A stretch of 64,000 nucleotides of DNA, from positions 81,790 through 145,789 of the forward strand of contig CAWBAN010000003.1 in the NCBI GenBank assembly GCA_963786935.1, written 5' to 3'. The position numbers and the translations under genes are program-made. The notes beneath the pieces were generated by a model. That model was not told where the DNA came from. It saw nothing but the letters and a program-made list of their open reading frames with translations, and did no database searches. Origin of the DNA: an uncultured bacterium (GTDB lineage: Bacteria > Krumholzibacteriota > Krumholzibacteriia > Krumholzibacteriales > Krumholzibacteriaceae). Shown here piece after piece: positions 3,588 to 56,906 of the stretch (its first letter is position 1; each line of letters begins with the position of its first letter).

Positions 3588-4172
3588 ATGAAGACACTGC
3601 TCTCAGTCATGATCCTTGTCGCTATCATGGCCGGCAGCGCCTGCGCATGCGACGGCATGCTGTCGCTCTACGCGGATCAGTCGGCGACCCAGTGCTCCGC
3701 CGCGCTCGCATGCTGCCAGAGCCTGCCGATGTACCTCATGTACGTCCGGGGGGATGGGCCGGAGATCGCGCCCGGGATGGCCTTCAAGCTGGAGAAATCG
3801 TCGGGGGGTGTTGCGTTCCTCGAGCCCGAATGGCCCGGGGCGTTCATGACCTACGGCAGCCTCCAGGGGGGCATCGACGTCGTCGTCAGATGCGGCGAGG
3901 ATTGGTGCTCGGGCGCCGAGACCGTCTCCTACATGGGGACGATTCCGGTCGTGAACTTCTCCGAGACGGGCACATTCACCGTGAAGGTGGCGGATTCGCC
4001 GAACTATAACGGGGTGATCGTCCTGTTGTGCCAGCCGGCCTATCCGATGTATCACGCGATCGGCGGCACGTTCGTCTTCAACGGCGAATGCAGCACCGCG
4101 GACGATCCGTACGGCACGAAGCTCGCCGTCGAGACGACGAGCTGGGGCGGCATCAAGAGCCTCTTCGAGTAA
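3588..4172 (+). CDS. Secreted Cys-containing protein with C-terminal TTSWGGIKSLFE tail
   Basis: Signal peptide MKTLLSVMILVAIMAGSACA; purine-rich RBS upstream; tail shared with two other ORFs. Confidence 0.8.
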   Translation: MKTLLSVMILVAIMAGSACACDGMLSLYADQSATQCSAALACCQSLPMYLMYVRGDGPEIAPGMAFKLEKSSGGVAFLEPEWPGAFMTYGSLQGGIDVVVRCGEDWCSGAETVSYMGTIPVVNFSETGTFTVKVADSPNYNGVIVLLCQPAYPMYHAIGGTFVFNGECSTADDPYGTKLAVETTSWGGIKSLFE

Positions 4173-4296
4173 ACCTGCAGCCGCCCCGGGGCGATCCGGG
4201 GCGGCACATCGAATCGATCGCTTTCATCAAAATATCATGACAGAATCGCCCCACCTTCTTCGTCTTATTACCGCAGCACGGACGAGGGAGGAATCC

Positions 4297-4818
4297 ATGG
4301 ACATCGATCGACGGCTCGTCGACGCGTGTCGCGGCGGAGACGCCGAAGCGTACGCCGGGCTTGTGAAGCGCTACTCGAGGAGCGTCTTCGCGGTCTGCCT
4401 CGGCACCTTGGGGAACGTTCAGGACGCCGAGGACGTCTCGCAGGAGACCTTCATCAAAGGTCTCGCCCGCATCGGCCAGCTGCGGGACGGCGCTCAGTTC
4501 GGCCCGTGGCTCACGAAGGTCGCCCGCAACCTGTGCCTCGATTACGTGCGAAGGAAGAAGCGAGGCGCGGAGATCGTCGCCCTCTCGGGCGGCGATCGAC
4601 GGAGCCCGGGGGACGAGCACGCCGATCTTCGCGAGGCGATCGCCAGGCTGTCCGAAAAAAACCGGCTCCCTCTCATGCTGTACTATTTCGACGGCCGGAG
4701 CTCGGAGCACGTCGCCAGCGCCCTCGGGATTTCGACGGACGGCGCCCTCACGAGACTGAGCCGCGCCCGGAAGGAGCTCAGGAAATTGATCGATTCGGAA
4801 GAGGTGTCCCATGAATAG
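4297..4818 (+). CDS. ECF RNA polymerase sigma-70 factor
   Basis: DAEDVSQETFI, FGPWLTKVARNLCLD and region 4 (RLSRARKELRK); GGAGG RBS. Confidence 0.92.
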   Translation: MDIDRRLVDACRGGDAEAYAGLVKRYSRSVFAVCLGTLGNVQDAEDVSQETFIKGLARIGQLRDGAQFGPWLTKVARNLCLDYVRRKKRGAEIVALSGGDRRSPGDEHADLREAIARLSEKNRLPLMLYYFDGRSSEHVASALGISTDGALTRLSRARKELRKLIDSEEVSHE

Positions 4819-6235
4819 AGAATGCAAGAGAGCCAGGGGCGATATCGAGCGGTCCTCCATCGAGCCTCTCGCGCGGGAGCGGCAGAATGAAATCGACGCG
4901 CATGTCGAGCGCTGCGCCGCCTGCCGAGAATATCTCGAAGCGATGCGCGGGGACGAGCGGGCGCTGATGAATTTCACGAGCTCGATGGATCCTTCCGTTG
5001 AAAGGATCGAATGGGAGTCCATCCGCGCCGCGGCGTGCGGCGTCGCGGCCGAACCGGTCGAACGCGCGCGGGCCTGGAGGCGAATCACAGGATCAAGAAT
5101 CGCCGTTTATGCTGCTGCTGCGGTCGCTCTCGTCGCCGTGCTCTGGGGGCTCAACCATTATACCGGCGTCTTCGTGGGTGAGCCCGCCTTCGCCGACGTC
5201 ATGGCGAAGATCAATACGGCGGAGAACGTGACGTTCCGCCAGATCATGAGGATCGAGGGGGGAGAGCCATGGACGACGGAGAACATGGCGACGGATACGG
5301 GTGTCCTGCGCTGGACGCTCGGGGGGAACGTCAACATCATGGATTTCAATAAGGGGATCGATCTTACTATGAGTCCATCCGAGAAGCGGGCGACCCTCGT
5401 CCGCCGCGTTGGTCGACCGCCTCGCAAGGGATTATTCAACTACGTGAGCTTTATCTCGACTCTCCACAACGGTCCGTCGGGGAAATTCGTCGGCCGCGAG
5501 AAGATCGACGGCTTCGACGCGAACGTCTTCGCGGTCAAGGACGGTGATTTTCTGTCGATCCGGATATGGGCGGACCCAAAAACGAATCTCCCCCTCCGGG
5601 TGATTTGGACGATGAAGCACAATCCGGAGCTGGACGTCACCGTACCGAGGATCTCCGTGTACGAGCGCGATTTCGGCGGAGATGTAAGGGTCTCGTGCAT
5701 ACTAACCAGAAGCGGCACGGGCGGCATTGCGCAGAGTACGGAGATGACGTTCGAGAATTTCGAATGGAACGAGAAGCTCGATCCGGATCTCTTCAGCGTG
5801 ACGCCGCCGCCGGGCTACACCGTGAACGAGCAGGATCTCGACGATTCGTACGAGGGGGAGAAGGATCTCGTCGACGCTCTCTCCTTCTGGGCGTCGATGT
5901 CGCAGAAGAGCTTTCCCGAGCAGATCGCCGATTTGTGCGCGGAGGAGAAAGTTCGGCCGAAGCTCATCGAAGCGTACGACAAGCAGGGCGATCCGCATAA
6001 GGAATATCAAGAGGCGCTGACCGCGGCCGGGCTGCTGCTCGACGGTCTCTATTTTTCACAGGACATGAAGGGAAACGGGGACTGGCACTACGCCGGCTCC
6101 GGCGTGAAGCTCGGCGACAAGAGCACGTCCGTCTGCTGGTGGAAGCCAGAGGGCTCGTCGAAATACCGGATACTCTACGGCGACTTGCGTCTGGCCGACA
6201 TCGACGAGGCGGATTTGCCCAAGGAGTCCCGGTGA
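4811..6235 (+). CDS. Anti-sigma factor: ZAS zinc finger, one TM helix, LolA-like periplasmic domain
   Basis: HVERCAAC (HxxxCxxC); hydrophobic TM segment; WADPKTNLPLR and LDPDLFSVTPPPGY LolA-like motifs; overlaps the sigma stop. Confidence 0.8.
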   Translation: MNRECKRARGDIERSSIEPLARERQNEIDAHVERCAACREYLEAMRGDERALMNFTSSMDPSVERIEWESIRAAACGVAAEPVERARAWRRITGSRIAVYAAAAVALVAVLWGLNHYTGVFVGEPAFADVMAKINTAENVTFRQIMRIEGGEPWTTENMATDTGVLRWTLGGNVNIMDFNKGIDLTMSPSEKRATLVRRVGRPPRKGLFNYVSFISTLHNGPSGKFVGREKIDGFDANVFAVKDGDFLSIRIWADPKTNLPLRVIWTMKHNPELDVTVPRISVYERDFGGDVRVSCILTRSGTGGIAQSTEMTFENFEWNEKLDPDLFSVTPPPGYTVNEQDLDDSYEGEKDLVDALSFWASMSQKSFPEQIADLCAEEKVRPKLIEAYDKQGDPHKEYQEALTAAGLLLDGLYFSQDMKGNGDWHYAGSGVKLGDKSTSVCWWKPEGSSKYRILYGDLRLADIDEADLPKESR

Positions 6236-6244
6236 AGCGCGGTC

Positions 6245-9063
6245 CTATCGGAGCAGGACCAATTTGCGGGAACGCATTTCCTTTCCCGCCTGTAGACGGC
6301 AGAAGTAAATGCCCGAGGCAGCCGGTTTCCCGAGACTGTCCCGTCCGTTCCACATGAGCGTGTGATGGCCCGCCGGCTGATCCCGGTCGGCGAGAGTCGC
6401 GATCGTCCTCCCGGCCGCGTCATATATCTCGACCTTCACGCGGCATCTCTCGGGCAGGTAGTAGCGGATCGTCGTCGAGGGGTTGAACGGGTTCGGGACA
6501 TTCTGGGAGAGCGTGAGGGGGAGCCTCGGCGTCGAGAGAATCTCCGTTTCGAAGAGCGTGCGGCTTCCGTTTGCGTCCGATATCCGCACCTGGTAACGGT
6601 ACTGCGCTCCGGCTTCGACGGCATTATCGACGAAGCCGAACGAGAGACCGTCACGAGAAATCGCGGGAGTGATTGCTTCCCATATCGGATCGGCGGCGCC
6701 GCCATCGCGGGCGTCGGTGCGCGAGATTTCGAACGCGGCGCCCTCGTCGAGCTGCGAAAGCTGCCACGAAACCCTGATTCCGGTCTCGGTCGGGCCTGCC
6801 TCGAAATTCATGAGCTCCGTCGCGACGAGCGGCCCGCGGGAGATCGAGATCTTCCGCGCGAAGATGTCCCAATTTCCCGTCCGGCTGTCGCGCCACGCGA
6901 GGAGCGCGTTGCCCGAGACATCGGGGGCGAGGAACAGATTCGTTTGATCGTCGTTGCTGACCATGGCGTGCGCGCCATAATCGTAATCATTCCAGAGAGC
7001 GTTGCCCGTCGAATCGACCTTGCTCATGAATATGTCGCTGCCCAGCTGATTCTGCGTGACCAACTCCGATCCGTTGAAGTGCCGGATCACGTGAGGCTTG
7101 CCGGATATCCAGATGTCGCTTCCGGCCGTGCCCCACACGCCGTACAGCTTGTTCGTCGAGGCCGGTTCGACGGTCGCATAGGTGCCGTCCCAGTGGGCGA
7201 GGAAGCCGCTCTCGAACACGCCGTAGACATTGGTCGTATCCGTTCCCCAGAGACTGAAGCCCATCCCGACCGATCCGAGACTGATGGTTCTCCATCCGCT
7301 CCCGTAGCGGATGAGCAATTTGTCGGAGGCGCCCGCGAAAACGCGATTGTCCGGGCCCACCCAGACGCTGTGCAGTACCCCGGGCGTCGTCATGACGATC
7401 TTGTTCCACGTCGTTCCGTCGTAATGAAGGGTGAGGCAATAGCTGTCCTGCGTGCCGACCACGTAGATGTCGGAGCTCGAAGTGCCGTGAACGCCGTACA
7501 GGTCGCATGTCGTGCCATACGGGGATTGCACCCAAGAGGATCCGTTCCAGTGATACATCTGCTTGGCCGTGCCGACCGCCCAGACGTCGCCCGGTCCCGA
7601 GCCCCAGACGCCGTAGAGCTGCGTAACGGACTTTGTGTACGTCTCGAGGTGCCATGCAGCGCCGTTGTAGTGGATGATCGTGCAGTCCGCGCCGACTGCA
7701 TATACGTTGCCATGGCTCGTTCCCCAGACGCCGTGCAGATGTTTCGTCGTCGGTGAGCTCATCATCGTCCATTTCACGCCGTCGAAATGAACGATGAGCC
7801 CGTTATCGCCGACGGCGAAAATGTCGCTCGCCGAGAAGCCCCATATGCCGCATATGATGCTGTTCTGCGGCTGGGGGACGACCCGTTCCCACGCGAACAC
7901 GGCTCCGCCCTCTCCGTCGGGAATCGCGAGGGCGTTTCGGCACTGATTGCGGGCATCGGAGAGCCGCTTTCCGTTCATGTCCCAAACCGGCGCGCCCGCC
8001 TGATCGATGCGTTGGGCGAAGAGCGTCCCGACGCCGCCGACGGGCATGACCCAGTGGACGATCGCGCTCTTCGAAGGCCCCTCCGTGACGCGGATCTCGC
8101 TCTTCGTCCCGCCGGTCGCGCACACGGGGACTCCATCGGGCGCCCACACGGCGCCGCCCGATGCGTCGAGCCTCTGCGCATAGATGTACGTGCTCACCCG
8201 ATCGTCGAACCAGGCGACAAAAGCCCCCCGGCTCCGTCGGACGCGATGCGGGGGGTCGACTGGTTCGCCGTGTACGAGATGACGGTGGCGCCGCTGTCGC
8301 CCCAGAGGCGGTTCCCGCCGATATCCATCTTCTGGGCGAAGACATCGGAGCTCGCGGTTCTCCTGCCGGCCCATGCAACGATGAGATCGCCGGATTCGTT
8401 GCGGATCGCCGAGTAACTGCTCAATACGTCGTCCTCGAGGTATACGGCGGCCGGAGCAGGACCCCAGAGCCGGTTGCCGTCCGCGTCGATCCGCTGCGCC
8501 AGGACATGATAATCGCTCCAGTAATTGCAGCCCCACGGCTCCCAGTAGAGGGTGCCGTTCCTCCAGAGAAGGATCACGCCGCCTGCGCCGTCGGGGAACA
8601 TCCGAAGATCGAGCTCGCTCCCGTTGCCGGTTTCCGTCGTGATCCGCATGCTCCACAGGATCGAGCCGGCCGCGTCGAGCCTTTCGACATACATCCGCGA
8701 GCTGGCGAGCGGGCAATCGAACGTGCCGATCCCGACGTCTCTCCGGAACGCGACGAAGACGCCCCCCGCGCCGTCAGGCTGTATGGCTTCATCCACACCC
8801 GACACCGTCGCTTCGACGCCGTTGGCCGTCCAGAGCGGCGTCCCTTCCGAACCGAATTTCTGAGCGTATATACCTCTCCTGTAGTCCTCCCAGGCGACGA
8901 AGGAGCCTCCCGTGCCGTCCGCGACGATGACCGGATCCTGCTGATACTTGGGATCAGTGCAGACGGGGATATCCTCCTGCAGCCAGCCTGCGCGGAGCGA
9001 GGGCGTCCCGATGATGGATAGCGCGAGAATGAAAAGGAAGGGGAGTCGATACGGTCGTTTCAT
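6245..9063 (-). CDS. Secreted repeat/beta-propeller protein with C-terminal FlgD-Ig/T9SS-like domain; frameshift near 8224-8229
   Basis: Signal peptide and DGxGGxxVAW repeats in ORF 8194-9063 continue in ORF 6245-8716; ends LSQNVPNPFNP...YFCRL...KLVLLR; one extra G restores DGAGGAFVAW. Confidence 0.82.
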
Positions 9064-9266
9064 GGCGGCGCCTCCGCGCGCGGCACGTGGGCGGTTTCCG
9101 TTTCTGCCCGCGCGGAATTCGCCGGGTAACGGTTCGCTCGTCCGCTCGATGTGCCGAATGTTCGCTTCAATAGCAGAGGTGCCGGTATCTTCCCCTTATG
9201 ATGCGCCGGAATCCCGAGATCCGATGGAATCCGACCTTGATATTGTAGCAGATCGCCGCCGGCGCG

Positions 9267-17131: not shown

Positions 17132-17138
17132 GGTCGTC

Positions 17139-27407: not shown

Positions 27408-27487
27408 CGGATGCAGAAGCGTAGTGGTGATTGTGCGCGATCAATAATCCTCTCGCCGAAAGCGGCGAGTCGGAGAAAGGATCAGTC

Positions 27488-30400
27488 ATGACACATCGGA
27501 AAGCATTATTGAGCTGCGCAGCGGCACTTCTTGCACTCCTTATCCTGCTCCCGTCGGTGCAGTCGGCCGATCCCGTCGAAGGGGTCAAGGCCAAGATCGC
27601 GCCGGCGCTCGGAGTGCAAATGGCCGCCGCCCAGCCGGGCGACTACGTGACGGCGATCGTGAAGTTGAACACCGTCGCGAACGTCAAGGCGATCCGCGGC
27701 GACAGGAAAGCGGTTTTCACCGAGCTGCGCGCCGTCTCAAAGCGGACGCAGGACGGCCTCGTACAGTATCTCGGGACGGCCGCCGTGAAACCGAAGGTCA
27801 AGTTGGTCCGGCAATTCTGGATCGACAACATCGTGCTCGTGCAGGCGACTCCGGACGTGATCAGGGAGATCGCCGCGCGGCCCGACGTCCGCGAAGTGTT
27901 CGATAACTATACGGTGACCATGCCGCCGCGTCCCGGCGACGGAGGTCACCCGGTGCTCCAGCAGGCGGCGCCCCTCTGGGATGCCCTCGGCAAGATCGGC
28001 GCCAAGCAGGTGTGGAGCACGTACGGGATCAACGGTACGGGTGTCAGGGTCGGCGGCCTCGATACGGGCGTCGATATCACGCACCCGGACATCGCCGGCA
28101 AGATGATCACGAACAATCCCTCCGATCCGACATACCCGGGGGGATGGGCCGAGTTCAACTCGACCGGCGGCATCGTGCCCGGATCGCTGCCCCGCGATAC
28201 CGACCAGCACGGAACGCATACGACGGGCACCGCGATCGGCGGCAGCGCGAGCGGGTACCCGATCGGCGTGGCCCCCGGGGCCCATTTCATGCACGGCCTC
28301 GTCATCCCGGGCGGGAGCGGAACGTTCGCCCAGGTGGCGGGCGGCATGCAGTGGATCATCGACCCGGACGGCAACCCGGCGACGAACGACGGCGCCCAGG
28401 TCGTCAACATGTCGCTCGGCGGAACGGGCACCTATTCGGAAATGGTCGCTCCGACCGACAACATGGTCGCGGCGAACGTGTTTCCGAGCTTCTCGATCGG
28501 CAACAGCGGACCGAACGCCTCGACGACGGGAAGCCCCGGCAACGTGCCGAGCGCCTTCGGCGTCGGCGCATCGGACAGCCTCGACGTGATCGCGTACTTC
28601 TCGAGCCGCGGTCCCGTGACGTGGAACTATCCGCCGTACGTCGGCACCTGGATCAAGCCGGACATCTCCGCGCCGGGCGTCGACATCTTCTCGTCCATTC
28701 CGGGCGGGGGATACGCAGGGGACTGGGACGGTACGTCGATGGCCGCGCCGCATGTGACGGGCACCGTGGCCCTCATGCTCCAGGCCAACCCGACCCTCAC
28801 CGTCGAGCAGACGAAGCTGCTCCTCCAGCAGACCGCCGTTGACCGCGGCGATCCCGGCATGGATAACACGTACGGCTGGGGCCGCATCAACGCCTTCGCG
28901 GCGGTGTCGGCCGCCCTCACGGGCATCGGCACCCTCGAGGGGCACGTGTACAGCAGCGCCGGCGGCCTGCCCGTGCAGGGCGCGAAGGTCCGGCTGACGG
29001 ACACCGGCCAGCAGGTGTACACGAACGCGGCCGGCTATTACATGCTGAAGGCGGTCGCCGGAATCCACAGCGTGCAGGTATCGCGCTTCGGCTTCGACGC
29101 GGTCACCGTGACCGTGAACATCGCGGCCGACGTGACGACCACGCAGGATTTCACGCTCACGCAGCTGCCTTCCGGAACGATCGCGGGATACGTGACCGAT
29201 GACGAGACGGGCGTCGGCATCGCCGCCTCCATCTCGGTCAAGTATCTCGGCGATCCGGTCTTGACGATATCGACGAATCCCGCGGACGGGTACTACAGCG
29301 TCACGCTCCCGACGGGGACGTACGATCTCGTCTTCAACCCGTCCTTCCCGTATCCCATGACGACGAGGAACGGCATCGCCGTCGCCGAAGGCGCGACGAC
29401 GACGCTCGACGTCGCCCTCGGACGCGCGCAGATCCTCATCGTCGACGACGACGCGGGCAAGGAGTACCAGACCTACTTCGAAACGGCCGTGGCCGGTTCG
29501 GGCAGGTCGTATCTGACGGTGAGTGCGCCGCCGAACGCGGCTACGATGGCCCTCTTCGAGTCGGTCATCTGGCTCACCGGTAACGACTACACGACGACCC
29601 TGACCGCGACCGACATGACCGAGATCGCCGCCTTCCTCGACGGTGGTGGACGGCTCTTCATGACGGGTCAGGACATCGGGTACGATATCGGCACGACGAC
29701 GTTCTATACGAATTATCTGCATGCGTCGTACGTGCAGGACGACGTGGGGCTCGGCGGCGTGCTCGGCGTCGCGGCGAGCGCCGTGGGCAACGGATTCACG
29801 TTCGAGATCAAGGGCGGATCGGGCGCCAACAACCAGGCGTATCCGTCCGAGATCAATCCGGTCGCCCCGGCGTCGCCGGCGTTCGTGTACGATCCGGCAG
29901 TCCCGGCTGCCGCGGCGACCGCGAACGACGTCGTGAAGAACGGCGTCTCGGCCGACGCGATCACCGGCTCGGGGACCGCGGGTCTCACGTTCGAGAACGG
30001 CACGTACAAGCTCGTCTACTTCGCCTTCGGCTTCGAGGCCGTGGCGGACGCGACGACTCGCACGATGCTCATGGACCGGGTTCTCGACTGGCTGCAGGGC
30101 TATCCGAAGATAGTCCATACGCCGCTCGGGGACACCGAGAACGCGACGAATCCCTACCGGATCGCCGCGGTCGTCACCTCGGATTACTTCGCGCTCGATC
30201 CCTCGACCATCGCGCTCGTGTACGACGCGGGGCTCGGGGACGTGACCGTGCCGATGACGGCGACGGGCGTGCCCGACGAGTACGAGGCGTTCATCCCGGC
30301 GCAGGCCATCGGGACGGAAATCGCGTACTACCTCACGGCGAGCGACGTCGAAGGACACGTCACGACCCACCCGATGGGGGCTCCCGCCGCGCGGCACATC

Positions 30401-33400
30401 TTCCACGTGATGTGGGACACCGAGGATCCCGTCGTGATTCACGTGCGGCACCACAACACGAACGATCTCGATGGTCCCTATCATATCTACGCCGGCGTGA
30501 CCGATAACATCGGCGTGGAATCGGTGTACCTCATGTACGCCAAGAACGGCGGGACGGCCCATCGCCTGCGGATGGAGCTCCTGCCCGACGGGCGCTTCCA
30601 TGGGGCGATCCCGGGACCGACGGCGGTCGGCGACTATTTCGATTACTGGATATACGCCATGGACGAGGCATACGCGGGGAACGTCACGCGCGTGCCCGCG
30701 ACCGGCGCGTACCGGTTCGAAATCGTCGAATACTTCCTGTGGGATTTCGAGCCTGACGACGGCGGCTTCGCGCAGACGGGCAACATCTGGGAGTGGGGCA
30801 TGCCGACGACGGGCCCCAACGCCGCGCATTCGGGCGTGAACGTCTGGGCGACCAAGCTCGCGACGACCTATCCGGCCTCGTCGAACGCGAAGCTCGACGC
30901 GCCGGAGATCACGATCGCGGCGAGCAAGCCGTACACGATTCTCTCGTTCTGGCACTGGTACGAAACGGAGAGTACGTACGACGGCGGAAACGTGAAGATC
31001 TCCGCGGACGGCGGGGCCACGTGGACGCTCGTCACGCCGATCGGCGGCTACGACGGAACGGCGAGCACGGCGAACGCGGGGATTCCCGGCGAGAAGTGCT
31101 TCATCGGAACGGCGAACATGTTCTGGCAGCAGGAGATGTTCGACCTCTCCGCGTACGTCGGGCAGTCGATCAAGGTCCGCTTCCACTTCGGGAGCGACGG
31201 CAGCGTCCAGAAATCCGGCTGGTACGTCGACGACGTCATGATCCGGAGCACCGACACGGACGACTACCCGCCGACGATCAGCGGAACGACCGTGCCGGGG
31301 AGCACCTTCGACACGGCCGGCCCGTACGCGATCACGACCCACGTGAACGATATCCTGTCGGGCGTGGGGGTCGTGTCGCTCTTCTACACGACGGATAACG
31401 GACTCACCTTCACGGAAGTGCCGATGGCGCACGGCGCGGGGGATCTCTACAGCGGAGCGATCCCGGGCCAGCCGAACGGCACGAAGATCAAGTTCTACGT
31501 GAAGGCCGTCGATTCGTCGGCCGAGGCGAACGAAACCGTCGATCCGGCGCTCGCGCCGGCGATGCTGTATTCGTTCGGCATCATGCCCTCCTCGGACATC
31601 CTCGTCGTGGTGAGCGGCTCGACCTCGGGCACCTCGCTCGCCATGTTCCAGGAAGCTCTGACGACGGCGGGCTATGACGCCGACTACTGGAACCGCACGA
31701 CCCAGGGCTGGCTCACGACGGACAAGCTGCTCCTCTACAAGTACATCTTCGTCGATGAGAACAGCGGGCTCACGGCGGCCCAGATGACCGGCCTCACGGA
31801 CTATCTGGCCGCGGGAACGCAGGGCGCCAAGAAGCGGCTCGTGCTCATGGGCCGCGATCTCGGCTACAACTCGACCACGCGTCCGTGGCTCGAGCAGTAC
31901 CTGCGCGCCAACTACGTGCAGGACAACCCGAACTACTGGCAGATCACCGGGTATCCGGGCGATCCGATCGGCGCGGGCGAGAGCTTCGTCATCTCCGGGT
32001 CGTATCCGGACGAATGGCAGCGCTCGACGACCTGGCCGGGCGGCGAGATCGTGTACCAGTACACGGGTACCGGCACCGCGAGGAACCGGAGCGAGCTGCA
32101 GGGCGAGTACGAGAAGGAAGGCAAGGAGTGGGACGGCATCGTCCCGAACACGCCGATCAGCCTCGATGCGGCTGCGGCGATCAAGTACAACGCGACGAAC
32201 TACCGTTCCGTCGCCTTCGCCTTCAACCTGTACTACATCCTGCAGGCCGATCGCCGGGCGGCGGTGATGGGTCGGACGATCGCGTGGTTGTCGGCGCCGG
32301 ATATTCTCCACACGCCGCTCCACGACACCGAGGATACGTCCAATCCGTATCCGATCGTCGCGAGCATCTATTCCGAGACGCTCGATCCGACGCGTCTCTA
32401 CATGACGTATGATAAGGGCTCGGGTCCGGTCGCGGTCCTCATGACGCCGACCGGCACGCCGAACGAGTACCGCGCGTACATCCCGGCGCAGCCGAACGGC
32501 ACGACGGTGCAGTACTACCTGAGCGCGGCCAACTTGGACGGCACGACGAGCTATCATCCGTCCGACGCTCCGGCGAACAAACACGTCTTCCGCGTGACGA
32601 CCGACATCACGCCGCCCGAGATCGTCCACGTGCCGCTCGGCAATTCGGCCGACGTCACGGGACCGTATCTCGTGAAGGCGACGATCACGGACAACATCGG
32701 CGTCAATCCGGCAGCCGTGTTCCTTTCGTACAACAAGAACGGCGGCGCCAGCTCGACGGTCGCCATGACCGCCATGGGCGGCGACGTCTATCAGGCGTCG
32801 ATCCCCGGCCCGGCCGTCGTCGGCGATGTGTTCAACTACTACATCACCGCGCGCGACGTGGCCTCGGTGCCCAACGTCGGACGCAGTCCGGCGGCGGGGT
32901 ACCACATGTTCATGATCGTCGATTACTACGCGTGGGACTTCGAGGCCTCCGGCGGCGACTTCGCGGCGGCCGGCACCGATTGGGAATGGGGCGCGCCGAG
33001 CTACGCTTCGGGACCGCCCGCGGCCCACTCGGGAACGAAGCTGTGGGGAACGAAGCTCGCGGGAACCTACTCGGCGAGCTCGAACTCCCGCCTCGAGACC
33101 CCGACGGTCACGGTGCCGACCTCGGCCCCGTACGCGACGCTGACCTTCTGGCAGTGGTACGCGAACGAGACCAACTACGACGGCGGCAACGTGAAGATCT
33201 CGACGGACGGCGGAGCGACCTGGACGCTGCTCAACGGGGATGTCGCCTACGACGGGACGTCCAAGTCGAACACGGCAGGCATTCCGCTCGAGTCGATCTA
33301 CACGGGAACGACGACCGGCAACTTCTGGAACAAGGTGACGGTCAACCTCACCGCGTACCGGGGCCAGCCGGTCAAGATCCGGTTCCACTTCGGAGCGGAC

Positions 33401-34855
33401 GGATCGTTCCAGTACGCCGGCTGGTACGTCGACGACGTCATGATCGCCGGTGTGCCGGCGGACGCGAATCCGCCGGTCTTCGTATCGACCACGGTGCCGG
33501 GCAGCACCTGGGATACCGTCGGACCGTACGTCGTGAAGACGAAGGTCAGGGACGCGCTCTCGGGTCTCGCCTCGGTGACGATGTACTACAGCGTCGACAA
33601 CGGCGTGAGCTGGACGACGGTCGCGATGACGCCGACGGGTGTCGCCGACGAATTCGGCGGCAACATCCCCGGCCAGCCGTCGCGCACGCGGATCAAGGTT
33701 TATGTCGCGGCGAACGACAACGCCGGGAATACGGGCCTCGATCCGGCCGGCGCGCCGGGCGCGACCTACCAGTTCGGCGTCATGCCGTCGGGCGATTACC
33801 TCGTGATCCTGGGCGGCAGCGCGCCCTCGCCCGCCAGCAGCTTCACCGACGCCTTCACGGCGATCGGGAAGACGTGCGACACGTGGAACTGGGACACCCA
33901 GGGTGTGCCGACGCTCGCGATGCTGAACGCCTACGTGGGCGTCATCGTGGACGAGAGCTCCTACTTCGACACGGCACAGCTGGCGCTGCTCACGAGCTAC
34001 CTCGATCAGAACGACGGCTCGAAGCAGCGGATCGTGTTCTGGGGACGGGATCTGTCCTACGGCTCGGGCGCACCGCGTACCTTCATGGAGAAGTATACGG
34101 GCATGGCCTACGTGAAGGACGATCCCGGCTCGACGTACCGGTGGCTGTGGAGCACTCCGGGCGATCCGATCGGAAACGGCGAGAGATTCGCGATCACCGG
34201 GACCTATCCCGATGAGCTGAAGCTCTCGACGCTCTATCCGGGCGCCCAGATCATCTTCAAGTACCACCTGTCGTCGACCACCGCGCTCGACAACGTCGGG
34301 AGCGAGGAAGAGCTCATTGCCTACTACTACAAGGAAGGCAAGGAATACGACGGGGTATGGCCGATGGTTCCCGCCGCGCCCGACTCGGCCGCGGCAGGAC
34401 GCTACGTCGGCACGTACCACGCGTCGGTCTACTTCGCGTTCCAGTTCAGCTACGTCACCGATGCCGCCCGCAGGGCCGCGGTGCTCGACCGTTCGCTGAA
34501 CTGGCTGACGACGGCGACGACGACGCTCGGAGAGACTGTATCGAAGGAAGATACGACTCCGGAGATTCCGGATCGGATCACCCTCGCGCAGAACTATCCG
34601 AACCCGTTCAACCCCGTCACGACGATCACGGTCGGCGTGCCCGCGAACTTCAGCGGCACCGCCGAGCTCCGGATCTACAACGTGAAGGGAGAGCTCGTCA
34701 GAACGCTGCATCAGGGCGCCATCAAGCCCGGCGTCCACACGTTCCGTTGGGAAGGCACCAACGACGGTGGGCGCAAGGTGACATCCGGTATCTACTTCTA
34801 CAGATTCGTCTGTGGAACTGAACGGATAACCAAGAAGATGGTGCTCCTGCGGTAG
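27488..34855 (+). CDS. Giant secreted S8 subtilase with carboxypeptidase-regulatory-like, Ig-like, immune-inhibitor/MAM-like repeats and FlgD-Ig C-terminal domain
   Basis: LDTG, HGTHT and GTSMAAPHV catalytic triad motifs; signal and propeptide; ends LAQNYPNPFNP...KKMVLLR. Confidence 0.92.
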   Translation: MTHRKALLSCAAALLALLILLPSVQSADPVEGVKAKIAPALGVQMAAAQPGDYVTAIVKLNTVANVKAIRGDRKAVFTELRAVSKRTQDGLVQYLGTAAVKPKVKLVRQFWIDNIVLVQATPDVIREIAARPDVREVFDNYTVTMPPRPGDGGHPVLQQAAPLWDALGKIGAKQVWSTYGINGTGVRVGGLDTGVDITHPDIAGKMITNNPSDPTYPGGWAEFNSTGGIVPGSLPRDTDQHGTHTTGTAIGGSASGYPIGVAPGAHFMHGLVIPGGSGTFAQVAGGMQWIIDPDGNPATNDGAQVVNMSLGGTGTYSEMVAPTDNMVAANVFPSFSIGNSGPNASTTGSPGNVPSAFGVGASDSLDVIAYFSSRGPVTWNYPPYVGTWIKPDISAPGVDIFSSIPGGGYAGDWDGTSMAAPHVTGTVALMLQANPTLTVEQTKLLLQQTAVDRGDPGMDNTYGWGRINAFAAVSAALTGIGTLEGHVYSSAGGLPVQGAKVRLTDTGQQVYTNAAGYYMLKAVAGIHSVQVSRFGFDAVTVTVNIAADVTTTQDFTLTQLPSGTIAGYVTDDETGVGIAASISVKYLGDPVLTISTNPADGYYSVTLPTGTYDLVFNPSFPYPMTTRNGIAVAEGATTTLDVALGRAQILIVDDDAGKEYQTYFETAVAGSGRSYLTVSAPPNAATMALFESVIWLTGNDYTTTLTATDMTEIAAFLDGGGRLFMTGQDIGYDIGTTTFYTNYLHASYVQDDVGLGGVLGVAASAVGNGFTFEIKGGSGANNQAYPSEINPVAPASPAFVYDPAVPAAAATANDVVKNGVSADAITGSGTAGLTFENGTYKLVYFAFGFEAVADATTRTMLMDRVLDWLQGYPKIVHTPLGDTENATNPYRIAAVVTSDYFALDPSTIALVYDAGLGDVTVPMTATGVPDEYEAFIPAQAIGTEIAYYLTASDVEGHVTTHPMGAPAARHIFHVMWDTEDPVVIHVRHHNTNDLDGPYHIYAGVTDNIGVESVYLMYAKNGGTAHRLRMELLPDGRFHGAIPGPTAVGDYFDYWIYAMDEAYAGNVTRVPATGAYRFEIVEYFLWDFEPDDGGFAQTGNIWEWGMPTTGPNAAHSGVNVWATKLATTYPASSNAKLDAPEITIAASKPYTILSFWHWYETESTYDGGNVKISADGGATWTLVTPIGGYDGTASTANAGIPGEKCFIGTANMFWQQEMFDLSAYVGQSIKVRFHFGSDGSVQKSGWYVDDVMIRSTDTDDYPPTISGTTVPGSTFDTAGPYAITTHVNDILSGVGVVSLFYTTDNGLTFTEVPMAHGAGDLYSGAIPGQPNGTKIKFYVKAVDSSAEANETVDPALAPAMLYSFGIMPSSDILVVVSGSTSGTSLAMFQEALTTAGYDADYWNRTTQGWLTTDKLLLYKYIFVDENSGLTAAQMTGLTDYLAAGTQGAKKRLVLMGRDLGYNSTTRPWLEQYLRANYVQDNPNYWQITGYPGDPIGAGESFVISGSYPDEWQRSTTWPGGEIVYQYTGTGTARNRSELQGEYEKEGKEWDGIVPNTPISLDAAAAIKYNATNYRSVAFAFNLYYILQADRRAAVMGRTIAWLSAPDILHTPLHDTEDTSNPYPIVASIYSETLDPTRLYMTYDKGSGPVAVLMTPTGTPNEYRAYIPAQPNGTTVQYYLSAANLDGTTSYHPSDAPANKHVFRVTTDITPPEIVHVPLGNSADVTGPYLVKATITDNIGVNPAAVFLSYNKNGGASSTVAMTAMGGDVYQASIPGPAVVGDVFNYYITARDVASVPNVGRSPAAGYHMFMIVDYYAWDFEASGGDFAAAGTDWEWGAPSYASGPPAAHSGTKLWGTKLAGTYSASSNSRLETPTVTVPTSAPYATLTFWQWYANETNYDGGNVKISTDGGATWTLLNGDVAYDGTSKSNTAGIPLESIYTGTTTGNFWNKVTVNLTAYRGQPVKIRFHFGADGSFQYAGWYVDDVMIAGVPADANPPVFVSTTVPGSTWDTVGPYVVKTKVRDALSGLASVTMYYSVDNGVSWTTVAMTPTGVADEFGGNIPGQPSRTRIKVYVAANDNAGNTGLDPAGAPGATYQFGVMPSGDYLVILGGSAPSPASSFTDAFTAIGKTCDTWNWDTQGVPTLAMLNAYVGVIVDESSYFDTAQLALLTSYLDQNDGSKQRIVFWGRDLSYGSGAPRTFMEKYTGMAYVKDDPGSTYRWLWSTPGDPIGNGERFAITGTYPDELKLSTLYPGAQIIFKYHLSSTTALDNVGSEEELIAYYYKEGKEYDGVWPMVPAAPDSAAAGRYVGTYHASVYFAFQFSYVTDAARRAAVLDRSLNWLTTATTTLGETVSKEDTTPEIPDRITLAQNYPNPFNPVTTITVGVPANFSGTAELRIYNVKGELVRTLHQGAIKPGVHTFRWEGTNDGGRKVTSGIYFYRFVCGTERITKKMVLLR

Positions 34856-45810: not shown

Positions 45811-46518
45811 GTGATGAGAATTCGGCGAACGATTATGGCAGCCCTTCTTCCGGCCGTCCTGGCGATGCCCGCATTCGCCGCCTGTCCGAACGCCCCGAGG
45901 GACGGCATTTATGCGACGTCGAACGGCACGATTCTCGGCGGCCGCTCCTCCGAAGCATGGTGCAGCGGAGCGGGCCCGGGGCGGATCGGCAACACCGAGA
46001 GCGCCATGTCGTGGGACGGCGTCAATCTCGGCGCGCAGTGGAAGGTGTACGGCATGACGAGCGAGGGAGCCGAGGAGACCGCGCGGTACTTCGACGCGCA
46101 CGGCAACGGCTGGATCGATTACGCGACGAACTACGTCGGGGGCAATTTCTGGCTGTCCGGCGCCGGCAATTGGGGAAACGGCGCCGCCGATTACTCGGGG
46201 ACCGTGACCTATTTCAACGTGGGCGCGCGGGTGACGTATGTCGGCGGCTCGCCGGTCGGCGTCACGTCGAACATCCTCCTGACGGGCGTGTTCGACGATT
46301 GCCCGAACTGCTCGATCGAGTACGCGATTTCGAACGCGATCCTCGTCTGGCAGACGGGCTACCCGACGGCGATGCCCGCGAACTATCCGCCGTTCCAGTG
46401 CAATGCCTCTTCCGGAGAGCTCTTCGACGCGTGCTGCATCGTCGCGAAGATTCATTGCACTCCCATTTCCACGAATCCGAGCACCTGGGGGGGAATCAAA
46501 TCCCTGTACCTGCAGTAA
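45811..46518 (+). CDS. Secreted 8-Cys protein with STWGGIKSLYLQ tail (paralogue A)
   Basis: Signal peptide ending AFA; collinear with 56202-56906. Confidence 0.85.
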   Translation: MMRIRRTIMAALLPAVLAMPAFAACPNAPRDGIYATSNGTILGGRSSEAWCSGAGPGRIGNTESAMSWDGVNLGAQWKVYGMTSEGAEETARYFDAHGNGWIDYATNYVGGNFWLSGAGNWGNGAADYSGTVTYFNVGARVTYVGGSPVGVTSNILLTGVFDDCPNCSIEYAISNAILVWQTGYPTAMPANYPPFQCNASSGELFDACCIVAKIHCTPISTNPSTWGGIKSLYLQ

Positions 46519-50804: not shown

Positions 50805-50820
50805 TGGAATGTCAATTGCT
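50805..50820 (+). promoter_or_regulatory. Sigma-54 -24/-12 promoter
   Basis: TGGAATGTCAATTGCT = GG-N10-GC with TTGCT. Confidence 0.72.
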
Positions 50821-50992
50821 CTTTACACTATCGACGAACGAGAGTATCCGGAATAAAACTCGCACAACGGATGGATCTCGTTTGGGCACCGGAGGGGGCT
50901 AGGGCGGCTCAGTGCCGACGTCGGCTCCGCGCCGACGTCGGCACCCTAGGGGAAGAGACGAAGTGAAAGGACACCGTTGGGAGGGCGGGGTT

Positions 50993-51412: not shown

Positions 51413-51547
51413 CAGCGGTTTTTATCCTACCTCTCGATCGATTCCTCCGCTATAATCCGCGAGGCTGTCCGGCTCGGCGCCGGAACACAGCACGCTCCCG
51501 CATCTTTCCGGTTGAATCTGCGTATTGAGATAGAAGGAGGACCGCCC

Positions 51548-52033
51548 GTGGCAAACATTCTGCAGCCCGCCGAGATCGTGGAGATCGGCATCGAGAAGGA
51601 GAAGAAGCGCCGCGATTTCTACGCGCTCGCGGCGGATCGGTTCAAGGGGGAGAAGGAGCTCGGCGAGCTCTTCGCGCGACTGCGCGATTGGGAGGTCGAG
51701 CACATCCGAAGGTTCGAGGAGATTCGGGACAGCGTGAAGAAGGCGCAGTATACGGAGTCGTACCCGGGGGAGACGGAAGGCTACATGGACGCCCTCGTCG
51801 ACAGCGATCTCTACGCGAAGATCACCCCCGAGCGGTTCGCCGAGATCGTGAAGACGCCCCTCGACGCCCTCGACCGGGGAATCGGATTCGAGAAGGACGC
51901 GATCCTGTTCTTCGGCCAGCTCGCCCGGTTCATCGATCCGGCGAGCAAGGAGATCGTCGATCGCCTCATCAAGGAAGAGCAGCAGCATATGCTGTATCTG
52001 TTCACCATGAAAAAGGGAATGAGCGGCAAGTAG
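51548..52033 (+). CDS. Ferritin-like/rubrerythrin diiron-domain protein
   Basis: EKE..FY, E.EH, FEKDAILFF and EEQQH motifs. Confidence 0.85.
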   Translation: MANILQPAEIVEIGIEKEKKRRDFYALAADRFKGEKELGELFARLRDWEVEHIRRFEEIRDSVKKAQYTESYPGETEGYMDALVDSDLYAKITPERFAEIVKTPLDALDRGIGFEKDAILFFGQLARFIDPASKEIVDRLIKEEQQHMLYLFTMKKGMSGK

Positions 52034-52079
52034 CCTCGGCCGGCGCCGCCCCCGATTATCTGCAAGGGAGGAATTCGGC

Positions 52080-53813: not shown

Positions 53814-53847
53814 GCCCCGCCGAACCGCTATTGGCGAGGAGGACGAA

Positions 53848-55917
53848 TTGTCTCGAACAAGCGCCCGCACGATCGCGTGCGCGGCCGCCCTTGTGTTGCT
53901 CGTTTCGACGGGCGCGCTCGGCGCGGCGCGCCCCATGACGGCCGATGATCTGTGGAAGATGAAACGCGTCGGCTCGCTCTCCGTTTCTCCCGACGGGAGC
54001 CGAGCGGCGGTCGTCGTGACCGAGTACGACGTCGCGAAGAACGAGGGGCAGGGGGATATCTGGCTCGTCAAAACCGACGGGTCCGGCGCGGTCCGCTTCA
54101 CGACCGGCGCGACGACGGAAAGCTCACCCGTCTGGAGCCCATGCGGCAGGAAGCTCGCGTTCGTCGCGAAGCGCGGGGGGGACGACAAGCCGCAGCTCTA
54201 CGTGATCTCGCTCGACGGCGGCGAAGCGGCGCGCCTGACCGAGATGCCGCTCGGCGTCTCGAACCTGCGGTGGGCGGGGCACAAGATATTCTTCGTTTCC
54301 GACGTGCTGCCCGGCTACGAGGGAAAGCTCGATTCGATGAAGGCCGAGCTCGACCGGCGCGAAGGGCGGAAGGTCTCGGCGAAGACGACCGAGGCGCGGC
54401 TCTACCGCTACTGGGATCACTGGCTCACCGACGGGACCATGCCCCACCTCTTCTCGATCGAATGCAAGAGCGGCCGCGGCGGCGCGCTCGTCGATCTCAC
54501 CCCCGGCTGGGACCGGTTCCTCACCGACTCGGGCGAGCTCGATTACGACGTCTCCCCGGACGCGAAGGAGATCGCCCTCTCGGCGCTCGAGTTCGGGGCG
54601 CCCTACGACTCGCTCGTATACGACATCTATCTGATCGACGCGGCCGCGCCCGGGCCGCCGCGGGACATCACGCCGGAGAATCCGGCCGACGATCTCTCGC
54701 CGCGATACACGCCCGACGGCAAGCACCTTCTCTACGGCATGCAGAGGATCCCCGGATTCTACGGCGATCGCGTGCGGCTCGTGCGCTACGACCGTTCGAC
54801 CGGCGAGAAGAAGGTTCTCACCGAAAGCTGGGACCGCTCCCCGTCGCGCTGGGCCGCGTCGAAAGACGGGAAGACCGTCTTCTTCTGCGCGGAGGACCGG
54901 GCCGCGACCTCGATCTTCTCGATCGGGCTGAGCGGCGGCGCGGTGAAGGAGGTATACCGGGGAGGAACGAACGCCCCGGTCGAGATCACGGACGGCGGGA
55001 AGCTCGTCTTACTCCACAACGATCTCTCGAAGCCGAACGAGGTCTATACCGTCCTCGCGAGCGGGAAGGGACTCCGCAAGCTCACCTCGTTCAACGACGA
55101 GATCCTCGCCGGCCTCGATTTCGGCCGCGTCGAGGACGTCTCGTTCAAGGGCTTCGGCGGAGCGGACGTGCAGATGTACCTCGTGTATCCCCCGGGATTC
55201 GACGCGGCGAAGAAATGGCCGCTCCTCATCCTCGTGCACGGCGGGCCGCACGGCATCTTCGGCGACGAGTTCCACTTCAGATGGAACGCGCACGCGTTCG
55301 CCGCTCCCGGCTACGTGACGGCGCTCGTGAACTTCCACGGCTCCTCGAGCTTCGGGCAGGATTTCACCGACGCGATCACGGCGGAGCACGGGCGCAAGCC
55401 CTTCGAGGACGTGATGAAGGCGGCCGACCTCCTCGTGGGCAGGGGATTCGTCGACGAGAAGCGCATGGCGGTCGCGGGGGGAAGCTACGGGGGATATCTC
55501 GTGAGCTGGATCGGGACGCAGACCGGCCGCTTCGCCTGCCTCGTCAACCACGCGGGGGTGTTCGACCTCTGCACGCAGTTCGGCTCGGACGTGACCTTCG
55601 GGCGCGAGCGCTCGTACGGCGGCACGCCGTGGACGAATCTGGCGGACGTCATCCGGTGGAGCCCCGCGCACAACATGGCGAACTACGTGACGCCGACCCT
55701 CGTCGTCCAGGGCGAGCGGGATTACCGCGTGCCGGTCGGCAACGCCCTCGAGGTCTACGGCATGCTCGGGGAGAAGGGCGTCCCCGCGAAGCTCGTCTAT
55801 TTCCCCGACGAGAACCACTGGGTGCTCAAGCCGCAGAACTCGATATTCTGGTACGGCGAGGTGCACGATTGGCTCGGTCGGTACATCGGCGCCGGGCCGC
55901 ATTCTATTGTAAAATAA
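53848..55917 (+). CDS. Exported S9 peptidase (dipeptidyl/acylaminoacyl peptidase)
   Basis: PD40-like propeller; HGGP, GGSYGG, DYRV and ENH motifs. Confidence 0.93.
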   Translation: MSRTSARTIACAAALVLLVSTGALGAARPMTADDLWKMKRVGSLSVSPDGSRAAVVVTEYDVAKNEGQGDIWLVKTDGSGAVRFTTGATTESSPVWSPCGRKLAFVAKRGGDDKPQLYVISLDGGEAARLTEMPLGVSNLRWAGHKIFFVSDVLPGYEGKLDSMKAELDRREGRKVSAKTTEARLYRYWDHWLTDGTMPHLFSIECKSGRGGALVDLTPGWDRFLTDSGELDYDVSPDAKEIALSALEFGAPYDSLVYDIYLIDAAAPGPPRDITPENPADDLSPRYTPDGKHLLYGMQRIPGFYGDRVRLVRYDRSTGEKKVLTESWDRSPSRWAASKDGKTVFFCAEDRAATSIFSIGLSGGAVKEVYRGGTNAPVEITDGGKLVLLHNDLSKPNEVYTVLASGKGLRKLTSFNDEILAGLDFGRVEDVSFKGFGGADVQMYLVYPPGFDAAKKWPLLILVHGGPHGIFGDEFHFRWNAHAFAAPGYVTALVNFHGSSSFGQDFTDAITAEHGRKPFEDVMKAADLLVGRGFVDEKRMAVAGGSYGGYLVSWIGTQTGRFACLVNHAGVFDLCTQFGSDVTFGRERSYGGTPWTNLADVIRWSPAHNMANYVTPTLVVQGERDYRVPVGNALEVYGMLGEKGVPAKLVYFPDENHWVLKPQNSIFWYGEVHDWLGRYIGAGPHSIVK

Positions 55918-56017
55918 TTAATTATGCTAATTGACGGCCGCGATCGCGTGGGGCGCCGCGTGCTTGTTCCCGCCTCGAAGAGCATACGTCTTCTGAGTGA
56001 AATACCTCATTACGGGA

Positions 56018-56047
56018 TTGACATTTTGCTCCGATTGGAGGTATAAT
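56018..56047 (+). promoter_or_regulatory. Consensus sigma-70 promoter
   Basis: TTGACA-18 nt-TATAAT. Confidence 0.8.
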
Positions 56048-56201
56048 CACCTGCGAAATAGTCCAACAAAGCCACGGGTTCGGAACACTGGTGCTTTTGC
56101 GGGCAGACTCGCTCAAACTGCCTTTCCGGGGGGGGTGCATCAATCGCTCAATTGGTATCGTCTGTCAACGTTGCTTTACCACGTTCCGGAAGGGGGATGA
56201 A

Positions 56202-56906
56202 ATGAGAGTATTGAGAATATTCGTCATATCGGCTGCCGCGATGCTCATCGCCGGCGCGGCCTACGCGGTGTGTGCGCATGCGCCCCTGCAGGGATCGTAC
56301 TCGACGACCAACGGCTCGATGATCGGCGGGCGCGTGTCCGAGGCGTTCTGCAGCGGCGTCGGCCCCGGCCAGCCGGGCAACATGCAGAACGCGATGTCCT
56401 GGAACGGCGCGGCTCTCGGAACGCAGTGGACCGTGAGCGGCATGACGATCGACGCCGCCGGCGCCGTCCTCAAGAAGGACGCGGTCGACGGCTCGGGCTT
56501 CGGCTACCGGGATTACGTCACCAACTACACCGGCGGAACGTTCTGGCTGTCGGGCGCCGGCGCATGGGGAGATGGGCTCGGGGACTTCACCGGCACGATC
56601 ACCTATTACAACGTCAGCACGAGGATCAGCTTCATGGGCGGCATGCCGATCGGAGCGACGTCCAATATCAGCTTCCGCGGCGCGTTCGCCGACTGCGCCT
56701 ACTGCTTCATCGACTACGCGGTGGCGAACTCGATGCTCATGTGGACGACCGGCGACGGCGCGATGCCCGCGAACTACCCGCCGTTCCTCTGTAGCGCGAA
56801 CGCCGGCGAGCTGCACGACGTCTGCTGCGTCACGATGCACATCCTCTGCGACGTGACGGCGACCGAAGACAGCGCGTGGGGAGCGATCAAGAGCCTCTAT
56901 CGCTAG
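56202..56906 (+). CDS. Secreted 8-Cys protein with SAWGAIKSLYR tail (paralogue B)
   Basis: Signal peptide ending AYA; collinear with 45811-46518. Confidence 0.85.
   Translation: MRVLRIFVISAAAMLIAGAAYAVCAHAPLQGSYSTTNGSMIGGRVSEAFCSGVGPGQPGNMQNAMSWNGAALGTQWTVSGMTIDAAGAVLKKDAVDGSGFGYRDYVTNYTGGTFWLSGAGAWGDGLGDFTGTITYYNVSTRISFMGGMPIGATSNISFRGAFADCAYCFIDYAVANSMLMWTTGDGAMPANYPPFLCSANAGELHDVCCVTMHILCDVTATEDSAWGAIKSLYR

Follow-up and report, generated by a model that had tools for sequence, protein, structure and literature searches.

The locus and its tailed proteins

The region analyzed here is a 64,000-nucleotide stretch of DNA from an uncultured bacterium of the Krumholzibacteriota, positions 81790-145789 of contig C3 in a 3.26-Mb genome (G000) assembled in five contigs, C1-C5; this whole stretch is called the window below. 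It encodes three signal-peptide proteins, T20, T21, and T22, that end in the same short C-terminal segment, which we call the tail (Table 1; T-numbers denote tail-bearing open reading frames (ORFs) of G000 and g-numbers its gene calls). A previous reading made from the letters of the window (the sequence-only reading) had taken this tail for a candidate sorting signal shared by three secreted proteins. The three endings were as claimed there, and each protein begins with a hydrophobic, signal-peptide-like segment. The first protein had been described as unrelated to the other two, in agreement with the lack of any BLAST link between them and with their different folds: T20 belongs to a family with a cohesin-like fold, as modeled for its paralogue T32, whereas T21 and T22 have an unmatched beta fold. 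By BLAST and a hidden Markov model (HMM), this cohesin-fold family, here called family X, includes 15 tailed paralogues in G000. Two larger secreted proteins of the window end in the type A / FlgD-Ig C-terminal domain of the type IX secretion system (T9SS) according to a C-terminal-domain HMM, which bears out the NPFNP/FlgD-Ig ends reported for them.

Table 1. Location of the tailed proteins of the window and of other genes discussed in the text. Window positions count from the first nucleotide of the window; all others refer to contigs of G000.
Feature	Location	Strand	Description
T20	window 3588-4172	+	tail-bearing ORF, 194 aa, signal peptide; ends VETTSWGGIKSLFE
Tail of T20	window 4122-4169	+	LAVETTSWGGIKSLFE
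T21	window 45811-46518	+	tail-bearing, 235 aa, signal peptide, paralogue of T22; ends STNPSTWGGIKSLYLQ
Tail of T21	window 46465-46515	+	ISTNPSTWGGIKSLYLQ
T22	window 56202-56906	+	tail-bearing, 234 aa, signal peptide; ends ATEDSAWGAIKSLYR
Tail of T22	window 56856-56903	+	TATEDSAWGAIKSLYR
T9SS-domain protein	window 6245-8716	-	secreted, 823 aa, T9SS type A / FlgD-Ig C-terminal domain at end
T9SS-domain protein	window 27431-34855	+	secreted, 2474 aa, T9SS type A / FlgD-Ig C-terminal domain at end
g2459	C5:152009-156100		T-type C25 peptidase, 1363 aa; best G000 match to the C25 peptidases of the neighbor cluster
g2455	C5:148997-149665		dockerin-like paralogue, ~220 aa; Cys-rich C-terminal 70 residues
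g1977-g1979	C3:328096-330192		three further dockerin-like paralogues, ~220 aa; Cys-rich C-terminal 70 residues
T36	C5:226097-226990		ends in the 19-aa tail GASAAVESGSWGAVKDLFR
g1965	C3:311631-312776		near-identical to T36; ends in a T9SS domain
g1272	C1:1543467-1544408		third paralogue of T36 and g1965
g2077	C3:464822-467497		ends in a T9SS domain
Relic ORF after g2077	C3:464465-464821	-	contains WGGIKSLF; outside the window; sole other strong non-terminal match in the genome
T14	C1:1443769-1443870		tailed ORF without signal peptide
T17	C2:227440-227883		tailed ORF without signal peptide
T38	C5:294964-295470		tailed ORF without signal peptide
ECF sigma factor	window 4237-4818	+	directly downstream of T20
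Anti-sigma-like protein	window 4811-6235	+	474 aa; overlaps the ECF sigma factor gene
PMT_2-TPR protein	C1:167950-169989		membrane protein encoded a few genes from a tail gene
PMT_2-TPR protein	C5:170134-172320		membrane protein encoded a few genes from a tail gene

The tail is strictly C-terminal in the whole genome. The pattern WG.[IVLM]K..[YF], applied to all six-frame stop-to-stop segments of at least 30 residues, gave 40 matches in G000, 38 of them at most five residues from a stop; the same pattern gave on average 0.5 and at most two matches in 20 residue shuffles. An HMM made from the 38 tails contributed about five more endings, in which W-S or W-T takes the position of W-G, and revealed no convincing internal copy in G000. 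The consensus of the tails is x-[C/P]-x-P-[VI]-[GA]-[VT]-E-x-[ST]-[STN]-W-G-[ASG]-[IV]-K-[S]-[LI]-[FY]-[R or nothing]. The lysine is invariant in the 38 tails defined by the pattern, the motif may be followed by zero to five additional residues, and the aromatic residue is the very last one in only 9 of the 38.

Signal-peptide-like, strongly hydrophobic N-termini were found in 35 of the 38 tailed ORFs, so that the observation extends far beyond the three proteins of the sequence-only reading. The three ORFs without a signal peptide are T14, a 33-residue fragment, T17, a shortened copy of the adjoining T16, and T38; all three are probably decaying or mis-started genes.

No curated model touched the tail, either in the three window proteins (Pfam and NCBIfam, E<=1) or in the other 34 scanned (Pfam, E<=0.01), and a search of the literature by motif strings and topic, with subscription journals outside its scope, found no published description. 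The tail itself is new in this sense, being absent from Pfam and NCBIfam as scanned and from the literature searched, and the earlier remark that no characterized machinery came to mind for it holds; C-terminal sorting signals as a kind are already known.

Portability and predicted structure of the tail

Removal of the tail from the 38 proteins left bodies that fall into 20 groups without BLAST links between them: one of 15 members, including T20, one of four, including T21 and T22, one of two, and 17 singletons. Pfam families were matched in six bodies, namely a NosD-like beta-helix, Temptin_C, LTD (lamin-tail domain), FG-GAP, a PMP repeat, and a C-type lectin, and the remaining bodies had no match. 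The proposal of a portable module is supported by these diverse bodies together with the strict C-terminal position and the signal-peptide-like N-termini.

AlphaFold models of two unrelated bodies, T22 (predicted local distance difference test, pLDDT, 93.5) and T32 (88.8), have the same layout: the fold ends and is followed by a 9-residue linker and a short unpacked helix. In T22, the beta-rich body extends to Cys217, the linker covers residues 218-226, and the helix covers residues 227-234; in T32, the helix covers residues 172-181. These helices of 8-10 residues have pLDDT values of only ~52-68. The T21/T22 body itself is all-beta with very long strands and is confidently predicted; Foldseek found no PDB fold match for the T22 body at E<=0.001, the weak top matches being small beta-barrels.

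The sequence-only reading had described the tail as a Ser/Thr linker plus a short amphipathic helix. Linker and helix reappear in the models, albeit at low confidence, but the amphipathicity is only moderate: the helical hydrophobic moment of the tail is 0.41, at about the 67th percentile of random 8-mers (mean 0.34, 95th percentile 0.69). The moment for strand periodicity is lower, 0.23. These values bear on the possibility that no dedicated machinery is involved and that the helix is an in-plane anchor by which the exported protein adheres weakly to one face of a membrane, comparable to the C-terminal anchors found in certain penicillin-binding proteins. Such an arrangement would suit the composition of the short helix, which has Trp, Lys, an aromatic residue, and a basic residue at its end, as well as its separation from the body in the models and its tolerance of up to five extra residues. 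Besides the ordinary hydrophobic moment, the near-invariant W and K and the non-helical P-V-E-x-S-T segment, conserved across phyla and bodies, exceed what lipid binding would need, and the lectin, LTD, FG-GAP, and beta-helix bodies look extracellular. An in-plane anchor is, in our view, improbable.

Exchange of the tail with the T9SS C-terminal domain

According to our own HMM, 88 proteins of G000, including the two in the window, have a T9SS C-terminal domain of the FlgD-Ig form at their end. The tail and this domain replace each other on one and the same body. T36 and g1965 are 98% identical over 280 residues (97.6% at the DNA level) and diverge after the sequence ...RLAGWD, where T36 continues into its tail, whereas g1965 continues into an 85-residue FlgD_ig/Por_Secre_tail domain. 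As a control, Pfam recognized the latter domain in g1965 (FlgD_ig, 4.7e-12; Por_Secre_tail, 3.3e-6). The third paralogue, g1272, carries neither tag, and the trio shares one enzyme-like body. This pair shows the two C-terminal tags to be alternatives, in support of the idea of two parallel addressing tags. That the tail is a portable C-terminal sorting tag and an alternative to the ~85-residue T9SS domain is demonstrated, or nearly so. T36 adjoins polysaccharide-synthesis genes.

Two further observations connect the tags. In g2077, the T9SS domain ends in ...KAVLLR and a stop, and the same frame continues with ARI-WGGIKSLF-D, the tail core beginning three codons past the stop; this sequence is best read as an old tail that was displaced when the gene gained a T9SS domain. 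BLAST also detected the family-X domain in four proteins that end in a T9SS domain, in N-terminal position in all four and as a second, inner copy in one.

Genes of both classes also lie close to each other. Among the 30 tail genes (out of 38) retained by our own gene call, 15 are located within three genes of a T9SS-domain gene, compared with 4.9 in 2000 random draws. The genome contains 11 PorV/PorQ-family matches, five of them over the NCBIfam cut-off; two are located a few genes from T26 and T37.

The endings of the tags are similar as well. The T9SS domains of G000 end in T-[RK]-K-M-V-L-L-R, with the lysine at position -5 present in 80 and the final arginine in 77 of the 88; the conserved tail lysine likewise stands 4-5 residues before the end, in I-K-S-L-[FY]-R. 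Lauber et al. 2024 (PMC10994853) report that a lysine near the C-terminus of type A domains is almost invariant and important for function, its main role lying "elsewhere in the transport process", outside translocon binding. The common lysine and ending are a resemblance only, which may nevertheless matter.

A PorU paralogue encoded next to tailed cohesin-fold genes

Clustering of the neighbors of tail genes at the G000 loci and at 20 loci from five other genomes identified a peptidase of family C25, whose best match in G000 is g2459. This gene starts 150 bp past three tandem tail genes, T31-T33. Its product matches Peptidase_C25 (PF01364, 1e-57) and has a weak FlgD_ig end; its sole relative in PDB is PorU (6za2, E 4.4e-12). 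It scores far below the NCBIfam cut-offs for PorU (NF033707; 172.7 vs 420 bits) and PorU2 (84.6 vs 450 bits). The true PorU of G000 is g0507 (557 bits), which is followed by a PorV-family barrel gene; no PorV-like gene adjoins g2459. We refer to g2459 and its kind as T-type peptidases and to those that group with the true PorU as PorU-type. Across an alignment of 53 relatives, neither the catalytic His/Cys pair nor a PNPF motif at the C-terminus varies, so that the T-type enzyme is probably active and itself exported by the T9SS.

Reciprocal BLAST cleanly separated T-type from PorU-type for every tested sequence. Bit scores of single-sequence g2459 searches fail to split the two types in distant phyla, whereas a family profile (A4) does so: in two tail-rich genomes, T-types scored 925-1064 bits and PorU-types 178-334 bits. 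A tail-negative phylum sample contained one C25 gene in each of 41 genomes, with 141-379 bits. In a Fermentibacteria genome where the tail was matched once, both C25 genes are PorU-type and none is T-type.

The linkage of tailed genes to this peptidase is conserved. All 46 genomes sampled from the phylum contain a match to g2459 (E<=1e-40). Up to 7 kb of upstream DNA was retrieved in 40 genomes, and the 39 with at least 1.5 kb were counted: 32 have a same-strand tail ORF upstream of the T-type gene, 27 have two or more, and none has one on the opposite strand. The nearest upstream tail ORF is usually 135-500 bp from the T-type gene. Five of the seven apparent misses have variant tails, which raises the count to 37 of 39. 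By an arithmetic estimate from ~40 tail genes per 3 Mb, a tail gene would be expected in about 5% of 7-kb same-strand windows. Outside the phylum, same-strand upstream tail ORFs were found at 9 of 12 assessable T-type loci, including four directly abutting the peptidase gene in a second phylum and arrays of three to five in Eisenbacteria-like genomes.

Family X, to which most of these upstream ORFs belong, has a cohesin fold. The model of T32 gave 37 PDB matches at E<=1e-3 in Foldseek, with cohesins on top (best 4ums, 1.5e-5; TM scores 0.5-0.7), and no Pfam family matched, cohesin and dockerin included. The T-type operon contains a second conserved component, a g2455-like gene, which is present at 27 or more of the retrieved loci. 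The g2455 protein, one of four dockerin-like paralogues, falls short of the cut-off for NCBIfam dockerin_GC (22.4 vs 29 bits) and carries no tail.

The cohesin fold of family X suggests another role for the tail, that of a docking peptide (a mini-dockerin) for family-X domains on T9SS-anchored surface proteins, by which a scaffold would be assembled non-covalently. The family-X domains in the four T9SS-domain-ending proteins and the enrichment of tail genes near T9SS-domain genes would fit this arrangement. Yet the own tail of T32 is undocked in its AlphaFold model (pLDDT ~52), the operon already has an untailed dockerin-like partner in g2455, the family-X proteins are themselves tailed, and it is left unexplained why a tail should replace a secretion domain. 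Such a docking role appears distinctly unlikely.

The other neighbors of tail genes in 38 own and 20 foreign loci were unconvincing as partners: T9SS-domain cargo, GT4 glycosyltransferases, resistance-nodulation-division (RND) pumps, and extracytoplasmic function (ECF) sigma factors, and likewise histidine kinases, ABC (ATP-binding cassette) ATPases, and PMT_2-TPR (tetratricopeptide repeat) proteins. In the window, an ECF sigma factor gene directly downstream of T20 overlaps a gene for an anti-sigma-like protein; a second ECF-like gene flanks T10/T11 elsewhere in G000, and histidine kinases flank T10 and T21. The PMT_2 (GT-C)-TPR membrane proteins are encoded a few genes from tails in G000 (Table 1) and at loci L211, L212, L218, and L224.

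The last proteins allow one more explanation, by which the Ser/Thr pair before the Trp would be an acceptor site and the tail would be recognized by PMT_2-TPR membrane glycosyltransferases. They occur at most five genes from tail genes at three loci of G000 and four loci elsewhere; but with at least five G000 paralogues having matches in the PMT region, three occurrences among 228 neighbors are near chance, and of the four loci elsewhere, three represent a single syntenic locus. We regard glycosylation of the tail as very improbable.

Taxonomic distribution and variant tails

The tail is conserved both within protein families and across genomes. In an alignment of the T22 family (the query and 66 homologues, with identities down to 33%), all 67 sequences keep it, and the lysine is present in at least 90% of them. 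A 25-residue tail profile (A1) built from 37 tails had matches in 200 of the 201 genomes sampled from the window's phylum, with top counts of at least 41 per genome, all nine genomes of a second, small phylum, and all five further genomes of other lineages (22-34 matches each).

When one genome from each of 185,579 species was scanned with an exact DNA pattern, at least 135 loci were found, 129 of the 135 with a stop at most five codons away. The 80 loci listed among these are labeled Eisenbacteria (18), Krumholzibacteria (6), Gemmatimonadota (4), Latescibacterota (3), Fermentibacteria/Aegiribacteria (3), and Zixiibacteriota, UBP1, and "Fibrobacteraceae" (1 each), and 43 are labeled "bacterium" alone. 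Profile A1 (E<=1e-5) detected no tail in 41 genomes from the phylum of the Zixiibacteriota-titled genome.

Seemingly tail-poor genomes of the window's phylum turned out to have variant tails, W-S-x-V-K-x-L-F and S-F-G-x-V-K-S-L-F-R, and W-T as well. Neither the G nor the W is therefore absolute, whereas the K and the spacing are. A within-phylum contrast between tail-rich and tail-poor members, considered for G005, G058, G089, G015, and G016, was rejected because these genomes carry W-S, W-T, or other variant tails. The same five genomes have 76-99 FlgD_ig matches each, even at a size of 2.2 Mb, many of them on ORFs of 150-310 residues. Other lineage dialects missed by the W-G profile were observed at loci L259, L265, L267, and L273 (genomes G017, G013, G008, and G039, respectively) and L245 (G037); in some dialects the Trp is changed to Phe (S-F-G-x-V-K-S-L-F-R), and in others the final aromatic residue is changed to Ile or Cys.

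The tail and the T-type peptidase are distributed together at the level of a few phyla.

Proposed function of the tail

Comparison of the results suggests the following scheme. (i) The tag consists of the linker [P]-[VI]-[GA]-[VT]-E-x-[ST]-[STN], a helix of about eight residues, W-[G/S/T]-x-[IVL]-K-x-[LIM]-[FY], and in most cases a basic residue; it is attached to Sec-exported proteins whose folds are numerous and unrelated to each other. (ii) The T-type enzyme, a divergent PorU paralogue with its own T9SS domain, would read the tail and, by analogy with PorU, would cleave the Ser/Thr-rich linker. (iii) After cleavage, the protein would be either released or joined to a surface acceptor. (iv) The tailed cohesin-fold proteins of the operon would be resident substrates of the T-type enzyme, like pilins encoded beside a pilus-specific sortase. 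We assign this explanation as a whole, a portable tag read by a dedicated PorU paralogue, a probability of about 0.45. Within it, a function of the tag as a signal for export, cleavage, or docking, and an action of the T-type enzyme on all tailed families, beyond its operon partners, are what we infer.

Several points weigh against this scheme. It is weakest where tailed proteins would have to cross the outer membrane: the proteins on which PorU acts have been brought to the cell surface by their T9SS domain, and the tail has only 15 residues. Upstream tail ORFs are missing at three of the T-type loci from outside the phylum. A FastTree phylogeny with PorU as the root unites all 27 T-types in a single clade, but the local support is only 0.49. 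In genome G203, an assembly of more than 600 contigs with 27 tails, only a PorU-type C25 gene was found; its four-gene tail array has no C25 gene inside 2.8 kb, in this highly fragmented assembly. The presence-absence contrast of tag and T-type covers few independent lineages. Co-folding of T-type residues 430-1130 with mature T32 gave a score of 0.00 against a mark of 0.32, which speaks neither for nor against binding. Finally, 71 of the 76 tail ORFs upstream of T-types belong to family X, so that the linkage could concern family X and the dockerin-like gene rather than the tail.

This last point is taken up by an explanation in which the T-type enzyme serves the cohesin/dockerin operon only and the tag is read by other envelope machinery. 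The T9SS translocon or its PorV/PorQ-type carriers might recognize it as a signal of minimal size, or it might be read by another export or anchoring system. This explanation would account for the K-x-hydrophobic-hydrophobic-(R) ending common to the tail and the T9SS domain (compare PMC10994853), for the clustering of tail genes near T9SS-domain genes (15 of 30), and for the supply of PorV/PorQ-family proteins in G000 (five of 11 matches over the cut-off). On the other side, the near-identical bodies of T36 and g1965 with different tags suggest different fates and not one route. In published structures, the translocon buries ~1,850 Å2 of a folded domain, an interface beyond the reach of a 10-residue helix. 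Apart from cargo, no further recurrent neighbor was found in the 38 and 20 loci. We consider a reading by other machinery unlikely.

A more far-reaching version of the scheme with a dedicated PorU paralogue is conceivable but doubtful: a second type IX sorting branch in uncultured Bacteroidota-related phyla, in which the tail, carried by ~1-1.5% of genes, would be cleaved by the PorU paralogue and the proteins would be joined covalently to the surface or to each other, giving a cohesin-fold scaffold or fiber in diderms.

C-terminal sorting tags decide the surface proteome of a cell, and this one is carried by 20-40 exported proteins per genome in whole uncultured phyla, including Krumholzibacteriota, Eisenbacteria, and Latescibacterota, in which annotation pipelines are blind to it. 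The candidate enzyme and the natural tag-swap pair make the tail testable. If the scheme is true, it would widen the range of the PorU sortase family, reveal to what small size a secretion or sorting signal can be reduced in this system, and provide a rule for predicting the surface proteome from sequence in these lineages.

Comparison with known systems

The closest parallels are with the T9SS. Its type A domain (PF18962 Por_Secre_tail / PF13860 FlgD_ig; TIGR04183), which has PorU as its sortase, resembles the tail in its C-terminal place, in its Sec-exported cargo of many folds, in being interchangeable with the tail on one body, and in the conserved Lys and hydrophobic-basic ending. The two differ in size and structure: the tail is one short helix in 15-17 residues, whereas the T9SS domain is a seven-strand sandwich of ~85 residues, and none of the 37 scanned tail proteins matched a T9SS-domain HMM (~70-100 residues). 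The candidate enzyme shares the catalytic pair of its paralogue PorU, the sortase of the T9SS, and carries a T9SS domain itself, but it misses the cut-offs for both PorU and PorU2. The putative second sorting pair of type IX, PorU2/PorV2 (NF052324, NF052325), is similar in that a paralogous PorU-family sortase would serve a second cargo class; g2459 differs from it in the score (84.6 bits against the cut-off of 450) and in having no adjoining PorV-like gene.

The outer-membrane protein beta-signal does not fit the tail, given the 9 of 38 aromatic-ended tails and a strand moment (0.23) below the helical one (0.41).

Tripartite C-terminal signals, such as those of the LPXTG/sortase, PEP-CTERM/exosortase, GlyGly-CTERM/rhombosortase, and MYXO-CTERM systems, combine a signature motif, a hydrophobic stretch, and a basic residue. 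The tail likewise has a motif ([VT]-E-x-S/T) followed by hydrophobic and basic residues and is found proteome-wide on unrelated exported proteins. It differs in that only about eight residues follow the motif, K and S among them, and such a hydrophobic stretch is too short for a membrane-spanning helix; the candidate enzyme is a C25 peptidase and not a sortase, exosortase, or rhomboid, and no NCBIfam CTERM model gave a relevant match in the three window proteins (E<=1).

In Gram-positive pilus and scaffoldin operons, signal-bearing substrates are encoded beside their sortase. The T-type arrangement is alike, with the gene for the putative processing enzyme beside some of its substrates, as for pilus-specific sortases. 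The cellulosomal cohesin-dockerin systems with sortase-anchored scaffoldins share with it a cohesin-fold family carrying C-terminal signals, a dockerin-like protein in the operon, and a sortase-like neighbor; here, by contrast, the hosts are diderm, the proteins have no Pfam cohesin or dockerin match, and the genome has only four dockerin-like proteins, with no glycoside hydrolases attached.

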